DNA from: a virus
Taxonomy: Duplodnaviria > Heunggongvirae > Uroviricota > Caudoviricetes
IMG/VR virus record: IMGVR_UViG_2718218133_000007
Reading direction: 5' to 3' (one strand)
DNA length: 46,024 bases
Positions 1,762 through 45,005 of this stretch are shown here, piece by piece. Both the position numbers and the translations under genes were made by a program. Numbering within the stretch: position 1 is the stretch's first letter; every line of letters starts with the position of its first letter. The notes under the pieces are model-generated. The model saw only the letters and a program-made list of their open reading frames with translations. It was not told the origin of the DNA and did not search any database.

Positions 1762-2802
1762 TTATTTAGACGCAAGCGCCGCCTCAATTGCAGATAATCT
1801 TTGTCTTAATTCTGCGTTTTCTTCTTCCAGTGCTGTTATCCTGTCGTCTGACTCTCTGGCTACCTGAACAAGCAAACCCGTTACGCCTGAGTAATCAACG
1901 GTATAGTATCTTTCTCCCTCTTCTCCATCAGACCCATTGTCCCCGCTCTTGTACTTTATTGTGCTACCAACTGATTCAGGGATTGCATTAAGTGCCTCTT
2001 GCGCAATAACGCCAGCATAAGGCATACCATTAGACTTGAGACGGTAAGTATACCCATTCATTAATCTGATGCGCTCAGTGGCATTATCAATAACCTGAAT
2101 GTTTTCTTTAAGATCTCTGTCCGACACCTGGTCGAATGATGTAGCCTTGCATGACCCGTTTATCTCAAGCTGATAGGTTTTATCTGGGTTCCTTTGTGCA
2201 TAAAACAAAAAAAGCCCGCCATCATCCCTAATTTCATAAACAACTGGACGACTGGAATTTCCCCATAATAACGTCGACACACCAGAATACGCCGTACCTT
2301 GCGTGTTTAGTGTCATGGTCGACCCGTGATTAGCATATTTGATCTGCAATGAGTCTGTATTATCAAACTTAATAAGCGCGTTACTTCCCCGCACACCATA
2401 CGACATGAGACAGTTCCCCATCTTAAGGTAACCATCACTGCCTGGAAAAATTAAAGTTCCTCCGTAAAGATCACTAAAGTCCCAAAAGATACCTTTTGTC
2501 CCGTTATGTGTGACGATCCTCGTCATTGTATCTTTAGTACCATCAATATTTTTTCTGGTATATATGTCACTATAAGCGTTTTCCGTTTCACCAGTCTTAT
2601 TTGACAAATGCAGCTTACCGCTGAATATAGTTCCAGTTGTTGGCAATGTTTTTTGATCATAGATTACATTGCAATAACCATTCCATGTTGTTTTATTGTC
2701 TACATAAGATTTTGTTGCGTAGTTTCCTTGATCGGTTTTTAATTTACTAACATCCGATTTTAGCGTTTTGATGTCATCAGGAATTACTGTTTTTGTAACC
2801 AT
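1762..2802 (-). CDS. tail fibre / receptor-binding protein with C-terminal intramolecular chaperone (peptidase S74-like) domain
   Basis: 346-aa ORF; C-terminal region (…SDRDLKENIQVIDNATERIRLMNGYTYRL…, coiled-coil tail ALEEENAELRQRL) resembles the auto-cleaving chaperone domain of phage fibres/tailspikes; last gene of the tail operon; AT-rich relative to lambda-like core. Confidence 0.55.
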   Translation of the reverse strand: MVTKTVIPDDIKTLKSDVSKLKTDQGNYATKSYVDNKTTWNGYCNVIYDQKTLPTTGTIFSGKLHLSNKTGETENAYSDIYTRKNIDGTKDTMTRIVTHNGTKGIFWDFSDLYGGTLIFPGSDGYLKMGNCLMSYGVRGSNALIKFDNTDSLQIKYANHGSTMTLNTQGTAYSGVSTLLWGNSSRPVVYEIRDDGGLFLFYAQRNPDKTYQLEINGSCKATSFDQVSDRDLKENIQVIDNATERIRLMNGYTYRLKSNGMPYAGVIAQEALNAIPESVGSTIKYKSGDNGSDGEEGERYYTVDYSGVTGLLVQVARESDDRITALEEENAELRQRLSAIEAALASK

Positions 2803-26547: not shown

Positions 26548-27015
26548 TCATCGAAGGCATTGCGTCCTGATGTATTCCTGAAGCGTTCTCAGTGCTGTTT
26601 GGTCGCGGATAATTCCGTCCCGGATACCGAGAACGTTTCGTCCAGCAACTGGAGAGAGTTCGACGGTGGCATCATTGCCCATGCCGGAGGCGCTGGAGGT
26701 TTCGGCTGAGGATGGCACAGGGCATTTTCCTTTGACGAGCACCCGACCACCATTATCAAGCTTGCGCCGAAGAGCATCATTTTCAGCTTTCGCATCAGCT
26801 AACTCCTTCGTGTATTTATCATCGAGTGCATCAGCATCACGCTGGCGCTGCTGCATGTCAGTAATGGTGGCGTTCGCCTTCTCCAGTTCACTGGCCTTGT
26901 TATCACGCTGTTCTTTGTAGGCGATTGCATTATCACGGTAATGATTAACAGCCCATGACAGGCAGACGATGATGCAGATAACCAGAGCGGAGATAATCGC
27001 GGTTACCCTGCTCAT
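26548..27015 (-). CDS. Rz: i-spanin Rz
   Basis: [31 protein letters not shown]… N-terminal TM plus coiled coil; start at second Met (track ORF to 27027); follows endolysin. Confidence 0.85.
26589..26795 (-). CDS. Rz1: o-spanin Rz1 (embedded in +1 frame within Rz)
   Basis: [19 protein letters not shown]… lipobox (VVGC) and proline-rich stretch; entirely inside Rz in another frame. Confidence 0.75.
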
Positions 27016-27509
27016 TGTTGCCCCCACAAACAGACCTCACGCTCAATCTCACGACGAGTCATCAGGCCTTTCCATTGCTTACCGCCAGCGTATGCCCAGC
27101 GACGTAGCTGGTCACATGCGCCCTTGATATCGCCCTGGTTTATTTTGCGAAGAAGAGTAGATGTTCTGAAATTGCCTGCGCCCACGTTATAGACGAACGA
27201 GTAAAGAGCGCCGCGCGTTGTTTCCGGTATATCGACTTTGATGTACGGGTTAATTTGTCTGGCTACCGTGGCAAGGTCTTTATTCAGGAGGGCTTTGCAT
27301 TCTGCTTCGGTATACGTTTTACCGGGAATGATGTCTTTTCCTGTATGCCCGTGACATACAGTCCATACGCCAACGATATCTTTGTATGGTATGTAGCTGA
27401 CACCTTCCAGACCATCGTTACCACTTGGGCCAGTGATTAACACTGATGCTATAGCAATTGCTCCGCCACCAATAGCAGCAGCAACGGCTTTTCGTAATGA
27501 TGGAGGCAT
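27012..27509 (-). CDS. R: SAR endolysin (T4-lysozyme-like, phage 21 R / RrrD type)
   Basis: 165-aa ORF; N-terminal Gly/Ala-rich signal-anchor-release segment ([20 protein letters not shown]), E…D…T catalytic motif region ([25 protein letters not shown]). Confidence 0.9.
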
Positions 27510-27724
27510 TATTCACCTCTCGCAGCCTTGCGCTTATCTTCTTTAATCTTGAAATAAAGGTTTGTCAGGTACGTCAGCAGGCCAAATACCAAGCTACCCA
27601 GCACACCTATTGCTGCCCACTGTGAGGGCGTGACTTTATCGAGCAGCTGTAAAAACCAGTAGCCAGCACTGCCTGCGGAGGTGCCGTAGGCAATGCCCGT
27701 TGTTAACTTATCCATGGATTTCAT
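27509..27724 (-). CDS. S: class II holin / pinholin (S21-like) with dual-start motif
   Basis: 71-aa [29 protein letters not shown]… two TMs; Met1-Lys-Ser-Met4 dual start typical of holin/antiholin pair. Confidence 0.9.
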
Positions 27725-27742
27725 AGCCTCACCTCCGCAAAT

Positions 27743-27751
27743 AACGGATGG
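27743..27751. repeat. 9-bp target-site duplication (left copy, aacggatgg) of the IS1 insertion
   Basis: Identical 9-mer found immediately flanking both IS1 ends; IS1 is known to make 8-9-bp duplications. Confidence 0.65.
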
Positions 27752-27806
27752 GGTAATGCTGCCAACTTACTGATTTAGTGTATGATGGTGATTTTAAGGT
27801 GCTTGC

Positions 27807-28082
27807 GTGGCTTCCATTTCCATCAGATGTCCTTCCTGCTCCGCTACTGAAGGCGTGGTGCGTAACGGCAAAAGCACTGCCGGACATCAGCGCTATCTCT
27901 GCTCTCATTGCCGTAAAACATGGCAACTGCAGTTCACTTACACCGCTTCTCAACCCGGTACGCACCAGAAAATCATTGATATGGCCATGAATGGCGTTGG
28001 ATGCCGGGCAACTGCCCGCATTATGGGCGTTGGTCTCAACACGATTTTACGTCACTTAAAAAACTCAGGCCGCAGTCGGTAA
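27807..28082 (+). CDS. insA: IS1 InsA
   Basis: 91-aa [43 protein letters not shown]… matches recalled IS1 InsA (zinc finger + HTH). Confidence 0.9.
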
Positions 28083-28504
28083 CCTCGCGCATACAGCCGG
28101 GCAGTGACGTCATCGTCTGCGCGGAAATGGGCGAACAGTGGGGCTATGTCGGGGCTAAATCGCGCCAGCGCTGGCTGTTTTACGCGTATGACAGGCTCCG
28201 GAAGACGGTTGTTGCGCACGTATTCGGTGAACGCACGATGGCGACGCTGGGGCGTCTTATGAGCCTGCTGTCACCCTTTGACGTGGTGATATGGATGACG
28301 GATGGCTGGCCGCTGTATGAATCCCGCCTGAAGGGAAAGCTGCACGTAATCAGCAAGCGATATACGCAGCGAATTGAGCGGCATAACCTGAATCTGAGGC
28401 AGCACCTGGCACGGCTGGGACGGAAGTCGCTGTCGTTCTCAAAATCGGTGGAGCTGCATGACAAAGTCATCGGGCATTATCTGAACATAAAACACTATCA
28501 ATAA
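28001..28504 (+). CDS. insB: IS1 InsB (expressed as InsAB' transposase by -1 frameshift)
   Basis: 167-aa ORF matching recalled InsB; overlaps insA in -1 frame across the A6C motif (~28058-28064). Confidence 0.9.
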
Positions 28505-28519
28505 GTTGGAGTCATTACC

Positions 28520-28528
28520 AACGGATGG
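28520..28528. repeat. 9-bp target-site duplication (right copy, aacggatgg) of the IS1 insertion
   Basis: See left copy. Confidence 0.65.
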
Positions 28529-28688
28529 TGTACACGGTTCGGAACGAAGAGGAAAGGTATAGAAGTTACATTAGCGTAAGGCTTGAACATCTATTCAAAA
28601 AGAAAAACGCCGCGATTATTCTGGCGTAGCTGAAAGCATCATACAATTATCAAATACGAAAATTACAAAATCATTAAAACGCATCACG

Positions 28689-29429
28689 TTACATCATGTC
28701 TTTTTCTAAAAAAAATCTTGATGAATATTGATGGGGAGGAACACCAAAATACCTTCTGAAAACACTTACAAAATATGACGTGTTTTCATAACTGCATATC
28801 TCAGCAACTTTTCCAACAGAATATAAATTGTAGCTTAATAACCTTTCCGCCATCACCATTCGCTCTTCAAGAATTAACTTACTAAATGATAAGCCTTCGT
28901 GCTTTAATTTTCTTTTTAACAGACTTTCACTCAGATACAGTCTTGAAGATATATCACAAAGTCTCCATGCTGCAGATATATCCGTGTGAATAATAGCCTT
29001 AACTTTACTTCCTAAACTATTAAGACATCCAAATAAAAAACTTTGCACTATTTTCTCTGAAGATAAGATAGCAAGACATGCAAGTGATATTTGATTTCTA
29101 ACAAAATCCACAGTTCTGCCATCACAATTCAAGCATGCAATCAAGTTCTTTAACAATGAAAAATCTTCACATTCCACCATCAAGTATGCCGGATAAAACC
29201 TTCTTACAGAAAAAGGTGAGAGTGTGTTGCTTTTAAAGAAATCATTAACTGTTTTTTCTTCAACATCTACGATCATTACATGATCTATATTTGATGAAAA
29301 AAAATCTTTTAAATTGTAATCAATGAGAACAGCACTTCCTTTTTTAAACAAAATATCTTCTTTACCAATTCGGACATCAAACGAGTTCAACACCAAAATG
29401 ATAGAACATATGTATAGCATATTATCCAC
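28689..29429 (-). CDS. AraC-family transcriptional regulator (AppY/GadX-like paralogue), cargo gene
   Basis: 246-aa ORF; C-terminal AraC HTH (…YENTSYFVSVFRRYFGVPPHQY); N-terminal domain shows AppY-like pattern (ILFKKGSAVLID vs [13 protein letters not shown]); AT-rich own upstream region; hairpin+T-tract downstream. Confidence 0.8.
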   Translation of the reverse strand: MDNMLYICSIILVLNSFDVRIGKEDILFKKGSAVLIDYNLKDFFSSNIDHVMIVDVEEKTVNDFFKSNTLSPFSVRRFYPAYLMVECEDFSLLKNLIACLNCDGRTVDFVRNQISLACLAILSSEKIVQSFLFGCLNSLGSKVKAIIHTDISAAWRLCDISSRLYLSESLLKRKLKHEGLSFSKLILEERMVMAERLLSYNLYSVGKVAEICSYENTSYFVSVFRRYFGVPPHQYSSRFFLEKDMM

Positions 29430-29771
29430 CTGATATCATTGGGGTTACACCAGGTAAGTATAGGTGGAAAATCAATATTCGCCAGTTCAACAATAAGGAA
29501 AATTTCATTGCATCACAAGTATAAAATTATGTATTTAACTCACAAAGACAAATTATTAAACCAATCTGTTATATTATATATAGCTGCGTGGAATCATAAT
29601 ATTATATATTTTGACTGGCATGTTTACTAACTTTAAGTTGCATCTCAATTGTTTCTTCAGCGTAAACAGAGTTTTTATACAAACTGACACTCTGGGTATC
29701 ATAGTGTAGTTTTTACGATTGTAAATATCCTGCATGCAGGAACTCATCCTTTTGGATGATATCGCATACAA

Positions 29772-30731
29772 TTAATTTACCATCAGTCTTAGAGCCAGTT
29801 CGTCCGGATAGGGATCGAAGTAATTCTGTGTAAGCAAGTAATCATTAGGATACTCACCCAGATAATGCTTCAGCAGAGTCAACGGCGCAAGAAGAGGTAA
29901 TGTGCCAGAACGATAGTTAAGTATAACCTCGCTCAACTCTTTACGCTGGCGTGTACTTAAGTAGTTACTAAAATACCCCTGTATATGCATCAGCACATTC
30001 GTGTGATTTTTACGTGATGCAGGTTTTCTGAGAATCGCCATCAGCTTATCACGATACACCTCAAAGTATGATTCAAGGTCCGCCCACTCGTGTATTGCAG
30101 CCACAAATGGTCCCATATCTTTATAGCCTGCCTGACTATGCGCCAACAACTGAAGCTTATAACGACTATGAAAAGCTAATAACTCTCTTCTTGATAATTT
30201 CTCCTTGTAAAGGTGATTGAGCTCATGCAAAGCAAAAACTCTTTCAACAAAATTCTCACGAAGCACTGGATCATGTAATCGCCCATCCTCTTCAACCGGT
30301 AGCCAGGAAAACTTTTCCATCAAAGTGCTCGTAAATAGTCCCACTCCATCTTTACGACCTCGATTACCATTTTCATCATAGACACGCACGCGCTCCATGC
30401 CACAGCTGGGAGATTTAGCACAAACCACAAACCCCGATACATCCTTTAATTTGTCCATATAAGAACGACTAAACTCTGTCATTCTCTCTGTCACATCCTC
30501 ATTCTGGTCGTGGCTGAAACACATCCGTATATTTCCTTGCGTCGAGCGCACAAGACGTAGAGCAGGACGCGGAACTGGCAGCCCTATAGCCATTTCCGGA
30601 CATACTGGTCTGAATGTTACCCATTCCACTAATTTGTCCATTAAAAAGTCAGCTCTTTTGTGACCACCATCAAAACGAACAGCAGAACCGGCCAAACAAC
30701 CGCTGATTCCAATCACAGGTTTTTTTATCAT
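29772..30731 (-). CDS. YbgA-like protein (DUF523 N-terminal domain + DUF1722 C-terminal domain)
   Basis: 319-aa ORF; conserved YbgA-family blocks recalled from E. coli YbgA: IGISGCLAG…VRFDGGHK, FRPVCPEMAIGLPVPRP, KSPSCGMERV, LPVEEDGRL…LRENF, HSRYKLQLLAH, LPLLAPLTLLKHY. Confidence 0.75.
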   Translation of the reverse strand: MIKKPVIGISGCLAGSAVRFDGGHKRADFLMDKLVEWVTFRPVCPEMAIGLPVPRPALRLVRSTQGNIRMCFSHDQNEDVTERMTEFSRSYMDKLKDVSGFVVCAKSPSCGMERVRVYDENGNRGRKDGVGLFTSTLMEKFSWLPVEEDGRLHDPVLRENFVERVFALHELNHLYKEKLSRRELLAFHSRYKLQLLAHSQAGYKDMGPFVAAIHEWADLESYFEVYRDKLMAILRKPASRKNHTNVLMHIQGYFSNYLSTRQRKELSEVILNYRSGTLPLLAPLTLLKHYLGEYPNDYLLTQNYFDPYPDELALRLMVN

Positions 30732-30923
30732 ATTCTCCCCCTTGACTAATTCATTAACACATAAACTGTGTAGTGCACGGAATAAATTGCCTTTCTGGCG
30801 TCATCACTGACAATTTTTCTGTTATGGACTATTCCTAATATAGTATGAAAGTTCTTTAAGTGATCGGTCGTAATCATCTATCTTTCATACTTACTCTCAA
30901 CTATCAAAAGTACAGGATTTATT

Positions 30924-31448
30924 ATGAAGTTATGGCCTGTGTTGACTGGCATTGCACTCTCTTTCACTCTTATAGCATGTAAGGCCCCGACACCACCTAA
31001 AGGTGTGCAGCCGATTACAAATTTTGACGCCAACCGCTACCTCGGAAAATGGTATGAAATAGCTCGCCTCGAGAACCGGTTCGAACGTGGTCTGGAACAG
31101 GTCAGCGCTACTTATGGAAAACGGAACGACGGAGGGATTCGTGTACTTAACCGTGGATACGATCCAACGAAAAATAAATGGAGCGAGAGCGAAGGTAAAG
31201 CATACTTTACTGGAGATACTAAAACTGCAGCATTGAAGGTTTCGTTTTTTGGCCCCTTCTATGGTGGCTATAATGTAATCAAACTGGATGATGAGTATAA
31301 GTATGCTCTTGTCAGTGGTCCGAACAGAGAATACCTATGGATTCTGGCAAGGACCCCAACTATTCCAGATAAAGTAAAAGCAGACTATGTGCGAACCGCT
31401 CAAAAGTTGGGATTCAATGTCAATGAATTATTATGGGTTAAACAATAA
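30924..31448 (+). CDS. Blc-like bacterial lipocalin, outer-membrane lipoprotein
   Basis: 174-aa ORF with lipobox (LIAC), lipocalin motifs GKWYEIARLENRFERGLEQVSATY and KVSFFGPFYGGYNVI…YLWILARTP matching recalled Blc; only plus-strand gene inside the late region. Confidence 0.8.
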   Translation: MKLWPVLTGIALSFTLIACKAPTPPKGVQPITNFDANRYLGKWYEIARLENRFERGLEQVSATYGKRNDGGIRVLNRGYDPTKNKWSESEGKAYFTGDTKTAALKVSFFGPFYGGYNVIKLDDEYKYALVSGPNREYLWILARTPTIPDKVKADYVRTAQKLGFNVNELLWVKQ

Positions 31449-31480
31449 AATCCCTACCCGAAATAATACTTATTAGAAAA

Positions 31481-31505
31481 AAACCAGCCTTTGGGGAGGC
31501 TGGCT
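31481..31505. terminator. strong hairpin with A-tract/T-tract (bidirectional terminator; candidate tR' for the late promoter and terminator for blc-like)
   Basis: aaaaaaa-ccagcct-ttgggg-aggctgg; on the minus strand the stem is followed by ttttttt, ~100 nt downstream of Q. Confidence 0.55.
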
Positions 31506-31603
31506 AAATCAGGAAACAAGCTGTTATATGATAATAACTACGTTGCGATTCCAACATTTAAAATGTTAGACTAATGACAATCAGACAGCAACTTTTCCTT
31601 TAA

Positions 31604-31996
31604 TTATTTCGAACAATCAGCATCCATCTCCAATCGGAGATCCAACACCATCAGCATACCCTCCACTACGCCCTCAGCTTTCTGAAGCATCCTGCCAACC
31701 CAACAATCAGATCGCCCATGCTTACGTGCAAGCGCCATAAAAGTCATGCCGCCGACATAATAGTCCACCAATAAATCATGCAAATCGCTGTTGTTCTTTT
31801 TCAGACGGGCCATGCACCCGCAAATGATCATCGCGTCATCGTCACAACATTGTGGGCGAGATTTTACTTTTGAAGTAATTAATCCCTTAAAACCGGCGGC
31901 AATGGACGACCAGGTCACATCTTCATGATTATTAGCCGCCCACGCTCCCCAACGCTCAAGAACCATCTGAATATCACGCATCAACTTACTCCACAA
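31604..31996 (-). CDS. Q: late-gene antiterminator Q (QuuD / phage 82-type)
   Basis: …[34 protein letters not shown]…[16 protein letters not shown]… resembles recalled QuuD; position downstream of rusA and upstream of late region; true start may be an internal Met. Confidence 0.8.
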
Positions 31997-34911: not shown

Positions 34912-36438
34912 TCAAAAATAAACCTCACCATCAACCATATATTTGAGAGTACTTATCGCCTGCTGGGCGGATATTGTTTTCATTAAAGGATAGTGTTTAA
35001 AAACAATGCCATTCATAAAATAGATATCACAGGTTTTATTATCTGTATTGATTATGATTTTTTCGAATGTTTTATAGGCAAGTGTACGACATAGCTCTCG
35101 CCCATTTTTACTGGTTAAGTCAATAGCATGAAAATCACCAAGTGAACTCACCGCTTTACTCTTCAAAGTTTTTAATGATACAGAAGCCCTTCGTAATTCC
35201 TTATCTAATACTCTGATTTTTTCTGCTATAGCGGTAACTTCAGGCGCAACAGATAATGCAGCAATTAAATTATTAATTTTCATCTGGAGCTCAATAATTT
35301 TCAACTCTAAAGTTTCATTAGCATCTTTCTTGTTTTCAACTGGTTGGATTTTACTACAATTAAAAAGCAACTCATTAATGATATTATAATCAACCAAATC
35401 TCTCTTTATTGATGGCCTGTCACATCGATGCAGTCTTCTCATCGGACAAACATAATAGCCATGCAAACTTCCAGATACCGCATGAACAATCATGGTATTA
35501 CCACAAGCCTCGCACTTCATAACTGTTCGAAGTAGATTTATCAACATAGGATTTTTGCTACTATTGCTAATACCAAAAGGTGCCAACCGAATTTCCTGTA
35601 CAGCGTAAAACAAATCATCTGATATGACTCTGGGATAATAGCCAGCGATTTCACTTATTCCTTTACCTCTTGCACGATATGAAGGTACGCATATACCTAT
35701 CAGAGCTTTATTCGCTAATAATTTTTCAATTACAGAAGGTCCCCATGCACTTTCTTTTCCTGAGAAATTCTTTACAGCATGATCATTTAAATACTTGGCT
35801 ATTGCATTCAATGAGCGCCTTTCCATCCTGAGTTTAAAAATTAGCTCAATAGTTTTCACCCTGTCGGGGTCTGGAACAAAAGCCGTTCTTTTGTCATCTA
35901 AGGAGAGCCATCTCGGACAAGACGCCGTCATAATCGTACCTGATTCCAGTGCATCCTGCCGTTTTTTCTTCCATGATAATTTAACCCGACTTGACTTTAT
36001 CTCGCTTTCTTCATTTGCCCTTTGTGCTATAAGTATGGCTTTTATTAATGAATATGGCTCATTCAAAGAGTCAATATTATAGACTGTATTGTCGCAAAGA
36101 GTTATAACATCAATACCGTGATTCAAAATCAATTTCAGACGTTCAATCGCTTCACCGACTTTTTCTCTTGAAAGTCTGTCCAGACTTTCAACTAACAATG
36201 TAGTTCCTGGCAATATATAACCATGCTCTATAGCATCTAAAAATTCCGAAAAAGCTCCTGATTGTGCATGCTTTCCTTTGAATGCACTTAATCCTAAATC
36301 TTCATATGTTATGGTATCAAGATAATAATCACTATTTACCTTTAACCATTCAGCAATAAGTCTTCTCTGTCGGTTTAATGAGTCGCCAGACATCTGACCT
36401 GGTGATGAAAATCGCATATATGCTATGGCTTTTTTCAT
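34912..36438 (-). CDS. ybcK: large serine recombinase (resolvase/invertase-type N-terminal domain, recombinase domain, zinc ribbon, coiled coil), YbcK-like
   Basis: 508-aa ORF; N-terminal …AIAYMRFSSPGQ… with candidate catalytic Ser; Cys cluster CEACG…C…C; AT-rich; adjacent to emrE as in DLP12. Confidence 0.75.
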   Translation of the reverse strand: MKKAIAYMRFSSPGQMSGDSLNRQRRLIAEWLKVNSDYYLDTITYEDLGLSAFKGKHAQSGAFSEFLDAIEHGYILPGTTLLVESLDRLSREKVGEAIERLKLILNHGIDVITLCDNTVYNIDSLNEPYSLIKAILIAQRANEESEIKSSRVKLSWKKKRQDALESGTIMTASCPRWLSLDDKRTAFVPDPDRVKTIELIFKLRMERRSLNAIAKYLNDHAVKNFSGKESAWGPSVIEKLLANKALIGICVPSYRARGKGISEIAGYYPRVISDDLFYAVQEIRLAPFGISNSSKNPMLINLLRTVMKCEACGNTMIVHAVSGSLHGYYVCPMRRLHRCDRPSIKRDLVDYNIINELLFNCSKIQPVENKKDANETLELKIIELQMKINNLIAALSVAPEVTAIAEKIRVLDKELRRASVSLKTLKSKAVSSLGDFHAIDLTSKNGRELCRTLAYKTFEKIIINTDNKTCDIYFMNGIVFKHYPLMKTISAQQAISTLKYMVDGEVYF

Positions 36439-36694
36439 GGTGACACCTGCTAACGTATGCTTTTATAAACCTTAGTGGTGGGATATAATTTTTGTTTAAT
36501 TTTTATTTAAAAAGACAATTAAGGTCACATTATCTTGAATATACAACAATAATCGTATTGCAATTTTCTTACGCCATAATCTTGAAAGCACAAAAGAATA
36601 CATAAAAAAATAAAGACATTAACAAAAAGCATAAAACGAGGCTCATATAAATATAAGAGCCTCCATATTTTAGTCGTTTAGAAACAAATTATTT

Positions 36695-37027
36695 TTAATG
36701 TGGTGTGCTTCGTGACAATAAATTAATAACCAACACACCGGCACAAATCAACATCATGCCTATAATGGCTGGCAGGTCCAGCCGTTGGCCGAAAAGTCCC
36801 CATGACAGTAAGCTAATCAGGACAATACCGACTCCTGACCAGATAGCATAAGCAATCCCTGTAGGAATATAAGCCAGCGTCTGAGCTAATAACCAGAATG
36901 ATGCACAATAACAAATAATTGTACCAACAGATGGCCATAACCGTGTAAAACCTTCTGAAAACTTCATTAAGGTTGTACCAATGACCTCTGCAAGTATTGC
37001 ACCACCAAGATAAATATAAGGGTTCAT
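36695..37027 (-). CDS. emrE: small multidrug resistance efflux transporter EmrE
   Basis: 110 aa from MNPYIYLGGAILAEVIGTTLMKFSEGF… matches recalled EmrE; four TM segments; ORF track extends to 37081. Confidence 0.9.
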   Translation of the reverse strand: MNPYIYLGGAILAEVIGTTLMKFSEGFTRLWPSVGTIICYCASFWLLAQTLAYIPTGIAYAIWSGVGIVLISLLSWGLFGQRLDLPAIIGMMLICAGVLVINLLSRSTPH

Positions 37028-38095: not shown

Positions 38096-39111
38096 AAATC
38101 CACCCCGTAAATCCAGTCAGTGTTTGTCAGGTCGAGTTTTGGTTTGCTGGCTATCATGCCTGCCTGTTGCTTGTTACGGTTGATTTCGAGTTGGGTCCAC
38201 TTGTCGCGGAGTTTGGCCGGACTTAGCACGTTACCGGACCAGAAGTTGTCCTGGCATGCCCAGCGGAAAAGCACGCACATGTCGCGGTGGTTACGTCCGT
38301 CACGTTCACGCATCAGGCGGATATCGTTAGCCCACCCTGCAAAATTCGGTTTTCTGGCTGATGGTGCGATGGTCTTCACCATGTCAAACATCCACTCTGC
38401 GGCGGTCAGGTCTTCTGCTGTCCCCCACTTGCTGCCGCTCTGAATTGCAGCATCTGGTTTCACCACAGGAAGATCGTTTTCTGGTTGGTCAGAGGATTCG
38501 CCAGAATTCTCGGACGAAAAAGGTTTTATATTGTCTTTTGTTAGTTTGTCTTTTGTGTTTACCTGATTCGGGTAAACGCCTTTACCTGATTTGGGTAAAC
38601 TTTTCTTACCTGATTCAGGTAAATTTACCTCTTTCAGGTAAACTTTATTTTTCTTACCTGATTCGGGTAATGTTGACCATTCACTGACCACATTATTAAT
38701 ACCGATATTCCGCCCGCTCTGAATCAAAATCCCACGCTTTACCAGAACACTTTTTGCAGCAGAACACTTGTGCGGTAATATCCCGGTCAATCCGGACAGT
38801 TGCTCGTTGCTCACCCAATCCAGTTTTTTATTAAAGCCATATGTTTTGCGCATGACAGCCAGGAAGACCAGAAGCTGGTGCTGTGTTAATCCGGCCAGCA
38901 TCACAGCTTCCAGCAACTCATTTGCAATGCGCGTATAACCATCATCGAGATCTGCCACGCGCGGCTCCTTTTGTGCCGCATCCGGCACTGGAAAATTGAA
39001 TATCTCAGCAGTGTTTGCCATAATTCCTCCCGCAATGAGTGTGTTACGATTTGCACCTGAAAGTCGGTTCTGTTCCAGCAGACCGGCTTTCGCCATTTCT
39101 GAACCTGTCAT
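38092..39111 (-). CDS. O: replication initiator protein O (contains ori)
   Basis: N- and C-terminal regions resemble lambda O; iterons inside the gene; start codon uncertain (Met1, Met6 or Met31 of the track ORF). Confidence 0.85.
   Translation of the reverse strand: MTGSEMAKAGLLEQNRLSGANRNTLIAGGIMANTAEIFNFPVPDAAQKEPRVADLDDGYTRIANELLEAVMLAGLTQHQLLVFLAVMRKTYGFNKKLDWVSNEQLSGLTGILPHKCSAAKSVLVKRGILIQSGRNIGINNVVSEWSTLPESGKKNKVYLKEVNLPESGKKSLPKSGKGVYPNQVNTKDKLTKDNIKPFSSENSGESSDQPENDLPVVKPDAAIQSGSKWGTAEDLTAAEWMFDMVKTIAPSARKPNFAGWANDIRLMRERDGRNHRDMCVLFRWACQDNFWSGNVLSPAKLRDKWTQLEINRNKQQAGMIASKPKLDLTNTDWIYGVDL
38558..38672. repeat. origin iterons (4-5 copies of a ~19-20-bp unit tacctgattcgggtaaa-like) with adjacent AT-rich tract
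   Basis: tttacctgattcgggtaaac, tttacctgatttgggtaaac, cttacctgattcaggtaaat, ttacctctttcaggtaaac, cttacctgattcgggtaatg read directly; AT-rich segment at ~38520-38557. Confidence 0.8.
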
Positions 39112-39647
39112 ATCGCCCCCAGCATGGTAGTAACCATCGCCATCAATGGACCAGCCAGATCTGGGTCCACACGAAACATCGATACAATACCTTCACTAAT
39201 TTCCTTCAGTTTCTGGTGGCGTGGTGCGTTGAGAATGACAGCCTGTTTTGCCTCACTGAGTTCCTTTTCCATTTCAGCCAACCTGGCCATGAAGCTATCC
39301 TGCTCAACCAGGTAACCGCGATATTCCAGCGGTAGTACCGCCAGAATTGCCGGGGTCAGTTCACGCACGTTATTTCGGTATTTTTCAGAATCGAATTTGT
39401 TATCGAGGAAGCGGAACAGCTTCTGGCGTGCACGGCTGACATCATCAGGGAAATCGATGGTGCCGCCGCCCTGCTCCCGATACTCATTCACAATGAGTGT
39501 GGCAACGACATCCTGATTATCTACAGCCGACCAGGCGCGGACGGCATCACGGATTTTTTCGTGGCCTGGCACCTGTTTTGTTTGAGAACGATTTATCACC
39601 GCAGTCGGGCTAAATCCGCTAGTCTGTTGGTATGGAAGTGGTTGCAT
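39108..39647 (-). CDS. putative regulator occupying the cII position (not lambda-cII-like; possibly phage 186 CII / YdaT-like)
   Basis: 179-aa ORF directly after cro and nutR-like boxA, stop overlapping O start (ATGA); family assignment is a guess. Confidence 0.4.
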   Translation of the reverse strand: MQPLPYQQTSGFSPTAVINRSQTKQVPGHEKIRDAVRAWSAVDNQDVVATLIVNEYREQGGGTIDFPDDVSRARQKLFRFLDNKFDSEKYRNNVRELTPAILAVLPLEYRGYLVEQDSFMARLAEMEKELSEAKQAVILNAPRHQKLKEISEGIVSMFRVDPDLAGPLMAMVTTMLGAI

Positions 39648-43726: not shown

Positions 43727-43836
43727 CAACCACTGAATGCATTTTTCTGGCAGCGGGCTTCATATTCTGTGTGCTTATGCTTGCCGACATGGGGCTTGTT
43801 TAATGACACCTCAGCAAGAAAACGCCCTTCGCAGCA

Positions 43837-44019
43837 TTGCCCGTCAGGCTAATTCTGAAATCAAAAAAAGCCAGACAGCAGTTTCCGGATAAAAACGTCG
43901 ATGACATTTGCCGTAGCGTACTGAAGAAGCACCGCGAAACGGTAACGCTGATGGGATTCACACCAACTCATTTAAGCCTGGCGATCGGCATGTTAAACGG
44001 CGTCTTTAAGGAACGATGA
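43837..44019 (+). CDS. small hypothetical protein
   Basis: 60-aa ORF in the early-left operon. Confidence 0.35.
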   Translation: MPVRLILKSKKARQQFPDKNVDDICRSVLKKHRETVTLMGFTPTHLSLAIGMLNGVFKER

Positions 44020-44383: not shown

Positions 44384-44662
44384 ATGTTCAGAATCATTTT
44401 TCCTAACACCTGGTACGTCGACCACCACGGCACTCCCTGCAAAATCCTGCGTTCTACCCACAACAAAGTTCACTACATCCGAAAAGGCAGAACATGTATC
44501 GCCAGCATGTTCCGCTTTAATCATGACTTTGAACCTGTGAATAAAGCTGATGCAGATCGGATAGCAGAAGAGATCGAAACGGCAGAACACATTAAGAAGT
44601 TACGTGACATGCGTTCAAAAAGCAGAGGTAACCATGGAATCATACAGCCTCACACTCGATGA
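44384..44662 (+). CDS. hypothetical protein (92 aa)
   Basis: ORF between the zinc-finger gene and xis-like gene; no family recognised. Confidence 0.4.
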   Translation: MFRIIFPNTWYVDHHGTPCKILRSTHNKVHYIRKGRTCIASMFRFNHDFEPVNKADADRIAEEIETAEHIKKLRDMRSKSRGNHGIIQPHTR

Positions 44663-45005
44663 GGCCTGTCAGTTTCTTAAGATATCCAGACCAACCGCCA
44701 CCAACTGGATACGAACAGGCCGCCTACAGGCAACACGTAAAGATCCAACCAAGCCAAAATCTCCTTACCTCACAACACGGCAAGCCTGCATTGCGGCGCT
44801 TCAGTCTCCGCTGCATACTGTCCAGGTGAGCGCGGGTGATGGCATAACAGAGGAAAGAAAATGTCACTCTTCCGCAGAAATGAAATATGGTATGCCTCGT
44901 ATTCGCTCCCGGGCGGGAAACGAATTAAGGAATCTCTTGGCACAAAGGACAAGCGGCAAGCTCAGGAGTTGCACGACAAGCGAAAAGCAGAACTCTGGCG
45001 AGTAG
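44634..45005 (+). CDS. xis: excisionase-like HTH protein (Xis/AlpA-type); C-terminal extent uncertain
   Basis: N-terminal …[29 protein letters not shown]… excisionase-family HTH; directly upstream of and overlapping int; ORF is longer than typical Xis. Confidence 0.5.

Follow-up and report, generated by a model that had tools for sequence, protein, structure and literature searches.

A simple, very recent IS1 insertion in the leader of the holin gene essD of an Escherichia coli lambdoid prophage

Results

Features of the prophage and of the IS1 element

The window, by which we mean the whole analysed stretch of 46,024 nucleotides (IMG/VR record IMGVR_UViG_2718218133_000007), is a lambdoid E. 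coli prophage, and intD ends it at the int stop codon. In the chromosome NZ_AP024687, intD is followed by a tRNA-Arg gene and then by fimZ/sfm genes, an arrangement that identifies the DLP12 (argU) site. The gene set looks complete, with int, exo/bet/gam, a repressor pair, replication genes (O/P), Q, lysis, terminase, portal, capsid and tail genes; it further includes emrE, ybcK and the series ybcN-ninE-ybcO-rusA-ylcG (RefSeq names). The positions of the features discussed below are collected in Table 1.

Table 1. Features of the IS1 insertion site, the lysis cassette, the cargo block and other prophage regions (positions in the window).
Feature	Position	Strand	Description and basis
Target-site duplication, left copy	27743-27751		AACGGATGG; repeat finder, script
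Complete IS1	27752-28519	+	768 bp; sequence reading, repeat finder, scripts
IRL	27752-27774	+	23 nt, end facing the holin gene; repeat finder
insA	27807-28082	+	91 aa, GTG start; ORF list
insB frame	28001-28504	+	Catalytic part of the transposase; ORF list
A6C motif AAAAAAC	28058-28064	+	Programmed -1 frameshift motif; own script
IRR	28497-28519	+	23 nt; repeat finder
Target-site duplication, right copy	28520-28528		AACGGATGG; repeat finder, script
Rz	26548-27027	-	Spanin; Pfam Phage_lysis, 4.1e-29
Rz1	26589-26795	-	Embedded in Rz; Pfam Rz1, 3.8e-21
rrrD	27012-27509	-	Endolysin, 165 aa; Pfam Phage_lysozyme, 8.9e-46; RefSeq name
essD	27509-27724	-	P21-type (class II) holin, 71 aa; Pfam Phage_holin_2_1, 2.2e-35; RefSeq name
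Remaining native essD 5′ leader	27725-27751	-	Shine-Dalgarno GGAGGTG and small hairpin; direct reading
AraC-family regulator gene	28689-29429	-	Cargo gene next to IS1, upstream; Pfam HTH_18, HTH_AraC
YbgA-family gene	29772-30731	-	Cargo gene; 2-thiouracil desulfurase domain and DUF1722; Pfam, RefSeq
Blc-like lipocalin gene	30924-31448	+	Cargo gene, antisense to late transcription; Pfam, RefSeq
Candidate tR′	31482-31505	-	Hairpin and T-run ~100 bp downstream of Q; consensus match only
Q	31604-31996	-	Late antiterminator; Pfam Phage_antitermQ (PF06530), 1e-50
Tail-fibre-region protein	1762-2802	-	346 aa; Peptidase_S74 (endosialidase chaperone) domain
ybcK	34912-36438	-	Large serine recombinase; Resolvase, Recombinase, Zn_ribbon_recom domains
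emrE	36695-37027	-	Efflux pump gene; RefSeq name
Protein with YdaT toxin domain	39108-39647	-	Early region; domain match

The terminal inverted repeats of the element, GGTAATGCTGCCAACTTACTGAT and the complement of ATCAATAAGTTGGAGTCATTACC, are imperfect, with 83% complementarity over 23 nt. In Pfam, InsA matched Zn_ribbon_InsA (2.5e-20) and HTH_Tnp_IS1 (4.7e-31), and InsB matched DDE_Tnp_IS1 over the whole profile (2.8e-77; 1-131/131); the scores of PF03811, PF12759 and PF03400 in the element were all far over the curated cut-offs. A -1 shift at the A6C motif is predicted to yield the fusion protein InsAB′ (27807-28504, 232 aa), which is read without a stop codon, and RefSeq labels the element 'IS1 family transposase, programmed frameshift'. 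The sole match of the promoter scan at the IRL end was an inward insA promoter-like site (27759-27786, + strand, CTGCCA-16-TATGAT). Repeats, ORFs and Pfam matches thus bear out the initial annotation, which had described a complete 768-bp IS1 with insA/insB, the A6C motif and inverted repeats; the distance to the start of the P21-type holin, which had been put at about 30 bp, is 27 bp from the IRL end to the essD ATG (27724, minus strand).

Alignment with K-12 IS1A gave 97.1% identity across 768/768 bp, with 22 substitutions and zero gaps. Judged from the sequence by size, terminal repeats, frameshift architecture, protein domains, target duplication and identity to IS1A, the element is an IS1. 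Seventeen of the 22 differences crowd into the first 157 bp (27752-27908), a part that comprises IRL, the insA promoter region and the insA 5′ end, while the remainder is nearly identical to IS1A. The clustering of the differences suggests a mosaic or recombinant IS1 isoform. At the protein level, InsA differs from that of IS1A by V4I, S7R and D15E.

IS1 was acquired by a simple and very recent transposition

Both flanks of the element carry the same 9-mer, AACGGATGG, an identity that is expected by chance for two fixed 9-mers with a probability of ~4e-6. We constructed the corresponding empty site by deleting IS1 and one copy of the 9-mer. The resulting 804-bp sequence found 100% identical, one-piece matches in at least 33 E. 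coli chromosomes, and 802 genomes covered at least 80% of it. A twin prophage in MS14385 lacks IS1, has a single AACGGATGG and differs from the window by 3 SNPs (12116, 16961 and 17460) over the 37.9 kb compared. In the free phage IdasGreatGrand (PP925829), the site is likewise uninterrupted and the 9-mer occurs once. The initial claim of a 9-bp duplication left by direct transposition therefore stood up to re-inspection, and the empty site was found in uninterrupted relatives as had been anticipated.

We also searched 5,426 complete E. coli genomes with a 121-bp probe spanning the junction between essD and IRL. The exact junction was present in five of them (FUJ80154, 2021CK-00607, EC200461, 20AR0192 and N4220121), whose sources comprise Japan, Ireland, human isolates and wastewater. 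A 3-kb probe from the window had 100% identical matches in four chromosomes, one of them NZ_AP024687 (FUJ80154). The restriction of the junction to 5 of 5,426 genomes indicates inheritance inside one clone, and this rarity, combined with the near-identity of the IS-free twin, indicates a very recent simple transposition in that clone. Copies of IS1 that are 100% identical to the present one reside at other chromosomal sites in the junction-bearing 2021CK-00607 and in FDAARGOS_497 and ECONIH1, where the present site is empty, so an intragenomic donor is plausible. We conclude that IS1 entered an otherwise complete-looking prophage by a simple, very recent transposition.

The lysis cassette and the retained 27 bp of the essD leader are unaltered in sequence

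EssD matched Phage_holin_2_1 with 120.9 bits against a cut-off of 26, covering profile positions 1-63/64, and its N-terminal MKSM is a dual-start motif. The N-terminus of RrrD contains a Gly/Ala-rich hydrophobic stretch, which is compatible with a SAR (signal-anchor-release) domain. IS1 disrupts no gene, and the 27 bp of leader that remain next to essD, with the ribosome-binding site, and both start codons are unaltered. Within the leader, the 5′ arm of the hairpin CCAUCCG...CGGAGGUG is the duplicated 9-mer, which reads CCAUCCGUU in the mRNA and pairs with the essD Shine-Dalgarno sequence. Minimum-energy folding gave this hairpin for the filled as well as the empty site, and a changed structure for initiation of holin translation was rejected because both forms fold with it. 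A perfect 10-nt inverted repeat (27674-27683 with 27730-27739) could, in addition, pair the Shine-Dalgarno region with essD codons ~14-17. The hairpin and the 10-nt repeat may serve as translational control structures for the dual-start holin.

A terminator-like hairpin and three cargo genes separate Q from IS1

All genes from the holin gene to the tail genes, terminase included, share the minus strand with Q and follow it, and this gene order confirms that insAB is antisense to essD and the other late genes, as initially described. The accompanying statement that IS1 lies between Q and the lysis genes holds for its position; Q itself is not adjacent, being 3.1 kb upstream of IS1 with a terminator-like hairpin and three cargo genes in between. 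The candidate tR′ has a 9-bp stem with 5 GC pairs and a TTTTTTC tail, and a weak promoter-like site, a consensus match only, is located at 31632-31603. The Q protein showed a weak sequence match (E = 1.8e-7) to the Q-protein chains of PDB entries 6P18 and 6JNX, which are Q21 complexes.

The cargo block (28529-31603) of ~3 kb has a GC content of 37.9%, as compared with 49.8% for the whole window. It occupies the spot where other lambdoid phages have a porin gene or stx. The entire module, consisting of the Q, lipocalin, YbgA, AraC-like, holin, endolysin and Rz genes, is found uninterrupted in IdasGreatGrand (97.9% identity) and in the Lambda_ev/1H12 series (~90.6% identity). A literature search on IdasGreatGrand, Lambda_ev087, 1H12 and ev243 gave unrelated papers only. 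Visual inspection alone revealed, on the minus strand at 28597-28630, a short hairpin with a long U-run after it, ACGCC-11 nt-GGCGU UUUUCUUUUU; it directly follows the AraC-like gene and precedes IS1. The terminator scan passed over it, probably owing to a loop of more than 8 nt. This hairpin could end cargo-gene transcripts ahead of the holin gene.

IS elements at other positions of the module and further observations on the prophage

The Q-to-Rz module of other lineages contains IS1 at at least 4-5 other positions. Among further genomes matched by the 3-kb probe, locus L002 has IS1 downstream of Rz, L003 has it between a truncated ybgA and the AraC-like gene, L004 has it within the 3′ end of the AraC-like gene, and L005 has it between ybgA and the lipocalin gene; the present site is empty in each of these. 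L002 and L003 additionally contain IS3, which sits within or beside the lipocalin and ybgA genes, and EC200461 has IS2 in the AraC-like gene together with the present IS1. The scatter of IS1, IS2 and IS3 indicates that the low-GC cargo region collects IS elements and that the insertions are independent; the Q-to-Rz region looks like an IS sink, which could reflect either selection or the known preference of IS1 for AT-rich targets. An insertion hot spot at the present site itself was rejected: 29 genomes carry an IS1 within ~1.5 kb, and the exact junction is found in five only.

Several further features of the prophage were recorded. The early region has cargo genes of its own, namely ybcK, emrE and the gene for the protein with a YdaT toxin domain (Table 1). 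An excisionase-like ORF (44634-45005, +), which matches Pfam HTH_17 (1.2e-8), overlaps the int start (44861); at this place RefSeq has only a 66-bp pseudogene, 'HTH, missing C-terminus'. The IS-free twin has the ORF in the same state, so that any excision defect would be independent of IS1. In the identical record, RefSeq lists two frameshifted pseudogenes, a ZapA-like gene (~43803-44019, +) and ylcJ (36496-36646, -), and both are older than the IS1 insertion since the twin has them as well. A second AraC-family regulator of 249 aa (1-750, -) lies beyond the tail fibre genes, in an AppY-like position, and shares 31% identity over 233 aa with the AraC-like cargo gene product. The gene for the Peptidase_S74 protein lies downstream of those for a 787-aa tail fibre and a Lom/Ail outer-membrane protein. 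The Rfam scan of the whole window at gathering thresholds gave zero matches.

Discussion

The insertion described here is a routine event that is already annotated in RefSeq, and all of it lies within known biology. IS1 transposase cut the target with a 9-bp stagger at AACGGATGG, and repair duplicated the 9-mer; the likely donor is an identical IS1 elsewhere in the chromosome of the same clone. As to its consequences, late transcription would start downstream of Q, at a putative promoter with a putative qut site that, with IS1 present, would be ~3.9 kb ahead of essD. Because the tR′-like terminator and ~3 kb of low-GC cargo DNA with one antisense gene lie between Q and IS1, the late polymerase must presumably be antiterminated already when it arrives at the element. 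Q proteins load on a paused polymerase and narrow its RNA exit channel, which makes it resistant to pausing and termination (PMC12360218, a 2025 review). Termination of either kind, intrinsic or Rho-dependent, is suppressed by Q antitermination, and polarity is suppressed by Q-lambda (PMC12360218). Given that the ~4 kb of antiterminated read-through in the native module works in free phages, a Q-modified polymerase would be expected to read through the extra 768 bp too.

IS1 would then be a nearly neutral passenger, causing at most a modest drop or delay in the expression of lysis and structural genes, and its effect on phage lysis is probably small. The insertion enlarges the genome by 777 bp. 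Packaging from lambda cos has size limits; since related phages measure 46.7-47.9 kb, the larger genome should still be packageable. We hold with high confidence the joint reading that a simple recent transposition brought in a near-neutral passenger. Several points speak against its second part. IS1 is known to be polar and the IS1-bearing form is missing from the deposited phage genomes (both taken up below); the Q for which polarity suppression is known is Q-lambda, as opposed to a PF06530-type Q such as the one found here; and the later gain of IS2 by EC200461 in the adjacent AraC-like gene could mean that selection on this prophage is relaxed.

The main alternative, which corresponds to the functional idea in the initial annotation, is that late transcripts terminate within IS1, leaving holin, endolysin, spanins and head and tail proteins at low levels and the prophage lysis-defective or non-productive. 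IS1 is strongly polar in both orientations by Rho-dependent termination, as the classical work on gal and lac established; here it sits in the stretch from Q to the lysis genes, insAB runs antisense to the late transcripts, and the entire late operon, from the lysis genes to terminase and on to the tail, lies downstream on the minus strand. The IS2 accrued beside IS1 in EC200461 also fits a block of this kind, and so does the occurrence of the IS1-bearing form in 0 of 50,697 deposited phage genomes, a weak point since chance also predicts zero for a variant with five genomes. Against it stand the capacity of Q antitermination to overcome both kinds of termination (PMC12360218), the native unit that crosses a terminator and ~3 kb of cargo DNA and still functions in free phages, and the intact translation signals of essD. 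Moreover, the minus strand of IS1 has a single terminator-like match, a weak stem of 5 bp at the edge of IRR, and in the region as a whole such matches were no more numerous than in shuffled sequence. We therefore consider a polar block unlikely.

An opposite effect, in which an outward or hybrid promoter at IRL drives constitutive, Q-independent, low-level expression of holin and endolysin, would have precedent, as IS1 ends are known to have made hybrid promoters, and direct reading shows an outward-pointing TTGGCA hexamer on the minus strand of IRL. The scan of the minus strand in the IS1-essD interval passed no sigma-70-like promoter reading from IRL into essD, however; TATTTG and ATTTGC, which come closest to a -10 element at a spacing of 16-17 bp, are without the conserved final T, and the transcript start would land within or past the Shine-Dalgarno sequence. 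Constitutive holin and endolysin would also be toxic, yet five isolates stably inherit the insertion, which makes such a promoter highly improbable. A rearrangement, a deletion boundary, a composite transposon or an assembly artefact in place of a simple insertion might be entertained on account of the many IS1 copies, at 15-17 places per record, that could promote recombination or assembly collapse. The perfect 9-bp duplication argues against this group of explanations, and the colinearity of both flanks with the IS-free twin and the same junction in five independently finished genomes effectively refute a rearrangement boundary or an assembly artefact, leaving this group next to no probability. 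The reading that we prefer thus remains a simple transposition with little effect on late expression.

A more far-reaching interpretation is that IS1 marks a first step of domestication, in which 768 bp of untranslated, Rho-sensitive sequence immediately ahead of the holin gene would measurably delay or reduce lysis and virion production, and that the cargo region between Q and the holin gene is a recurrent IS sink. We regard this combined proposal as quite unlikely. If true, it would place domestication in an internationally spread clinical clone with an otherwise intact prophage, and it would imply that the cargo region is a route by which prophages of this family are disarmed again and again in E. 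coli lineages.

The insertion has little discovery value as such, IS1 being among the best-known bacterial insertion sequences and IS elements in lambdoid prophages being commonplace. Its use lies in the natural, nearly isogenic pair formed by the prophages of MS14385 and of an IS1-bearing strain such as FUJ80154, which are separated by the 3 SNPs and IS1 over the 37.9 kb compared. This pair could be used for measuring the suppression of IS1 polarity by a PF06530-type Q. The essD/IRL junction could, in addition, act as a clonal marker for the five-genome lineage.

Comparison with known systems

The element shares with IS1A and the IS1 family of E. coli and Shigella the length of 768 bp, the imperfect repeats of ~23 bp, insA/insB, the A6C-directed synthesis of InsAB′ and the 9-bp duplication; RefSeq gives it the generic name 'IS1 family' instead of naming it IS1A or IS1B. 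The lysis genes resemble the cassette of phage 21 (the S21 pinholin, the R21 SAR endolysin and Rz/Rz1) in the end-to-end match to the Pfam family 'Bacteriophage P21 holin S', in the MKSM start and in the succession of lysozyme, Rz and embedded Rz1 after the holin. Unlike phage 21, the present prophage has IS1 in the leader, and pinhole formation and SAR-type export would follow here from family membership.

The prophage shares with DLP12 of K-12 the argU/intD site and the genes intD, emrE, ybcK, ybcN, ninE, ybcO, rusA, ylcG, Q, essD, rrrD and Rz. DLP12 also has an IS element in the interval between Q and the holin gene, an IS5 in nmpC between quuD and essD. DLP12 is cryptic, whereas the present prophage has an apparently complete gene set that extends from exo/bet/gam, repressor and O/P to terminase, portal, capsid and tail genes. 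The cargo differs as well, consisting of the lipocalin, YbgA and AraC-like genes here and of the porin gene nmpC in DLP12, and IS1 lies in a non-coding leader here whereas IS5 lies inside a gene in DLP12.

Our search for IS1 upstream of a prophage holin gene turned up nothing specific in the literature beyond remarks of a general kind about IS elements of Stx prophages. In those prophages, IS elements in the Q-stx-lysis region are common and documented, for example IS1203v next to or in stx2 (PMC8136144). Common to those cases and the present one is an IS element that has entered a lambdoid late transcription unit at a point after Q and before the lysis genes. The Stx prophage elements belong, however, to the IS3 family and were shown experimentally to abolish toxin expression, whereas the IS1 described here hits no coding sequence.
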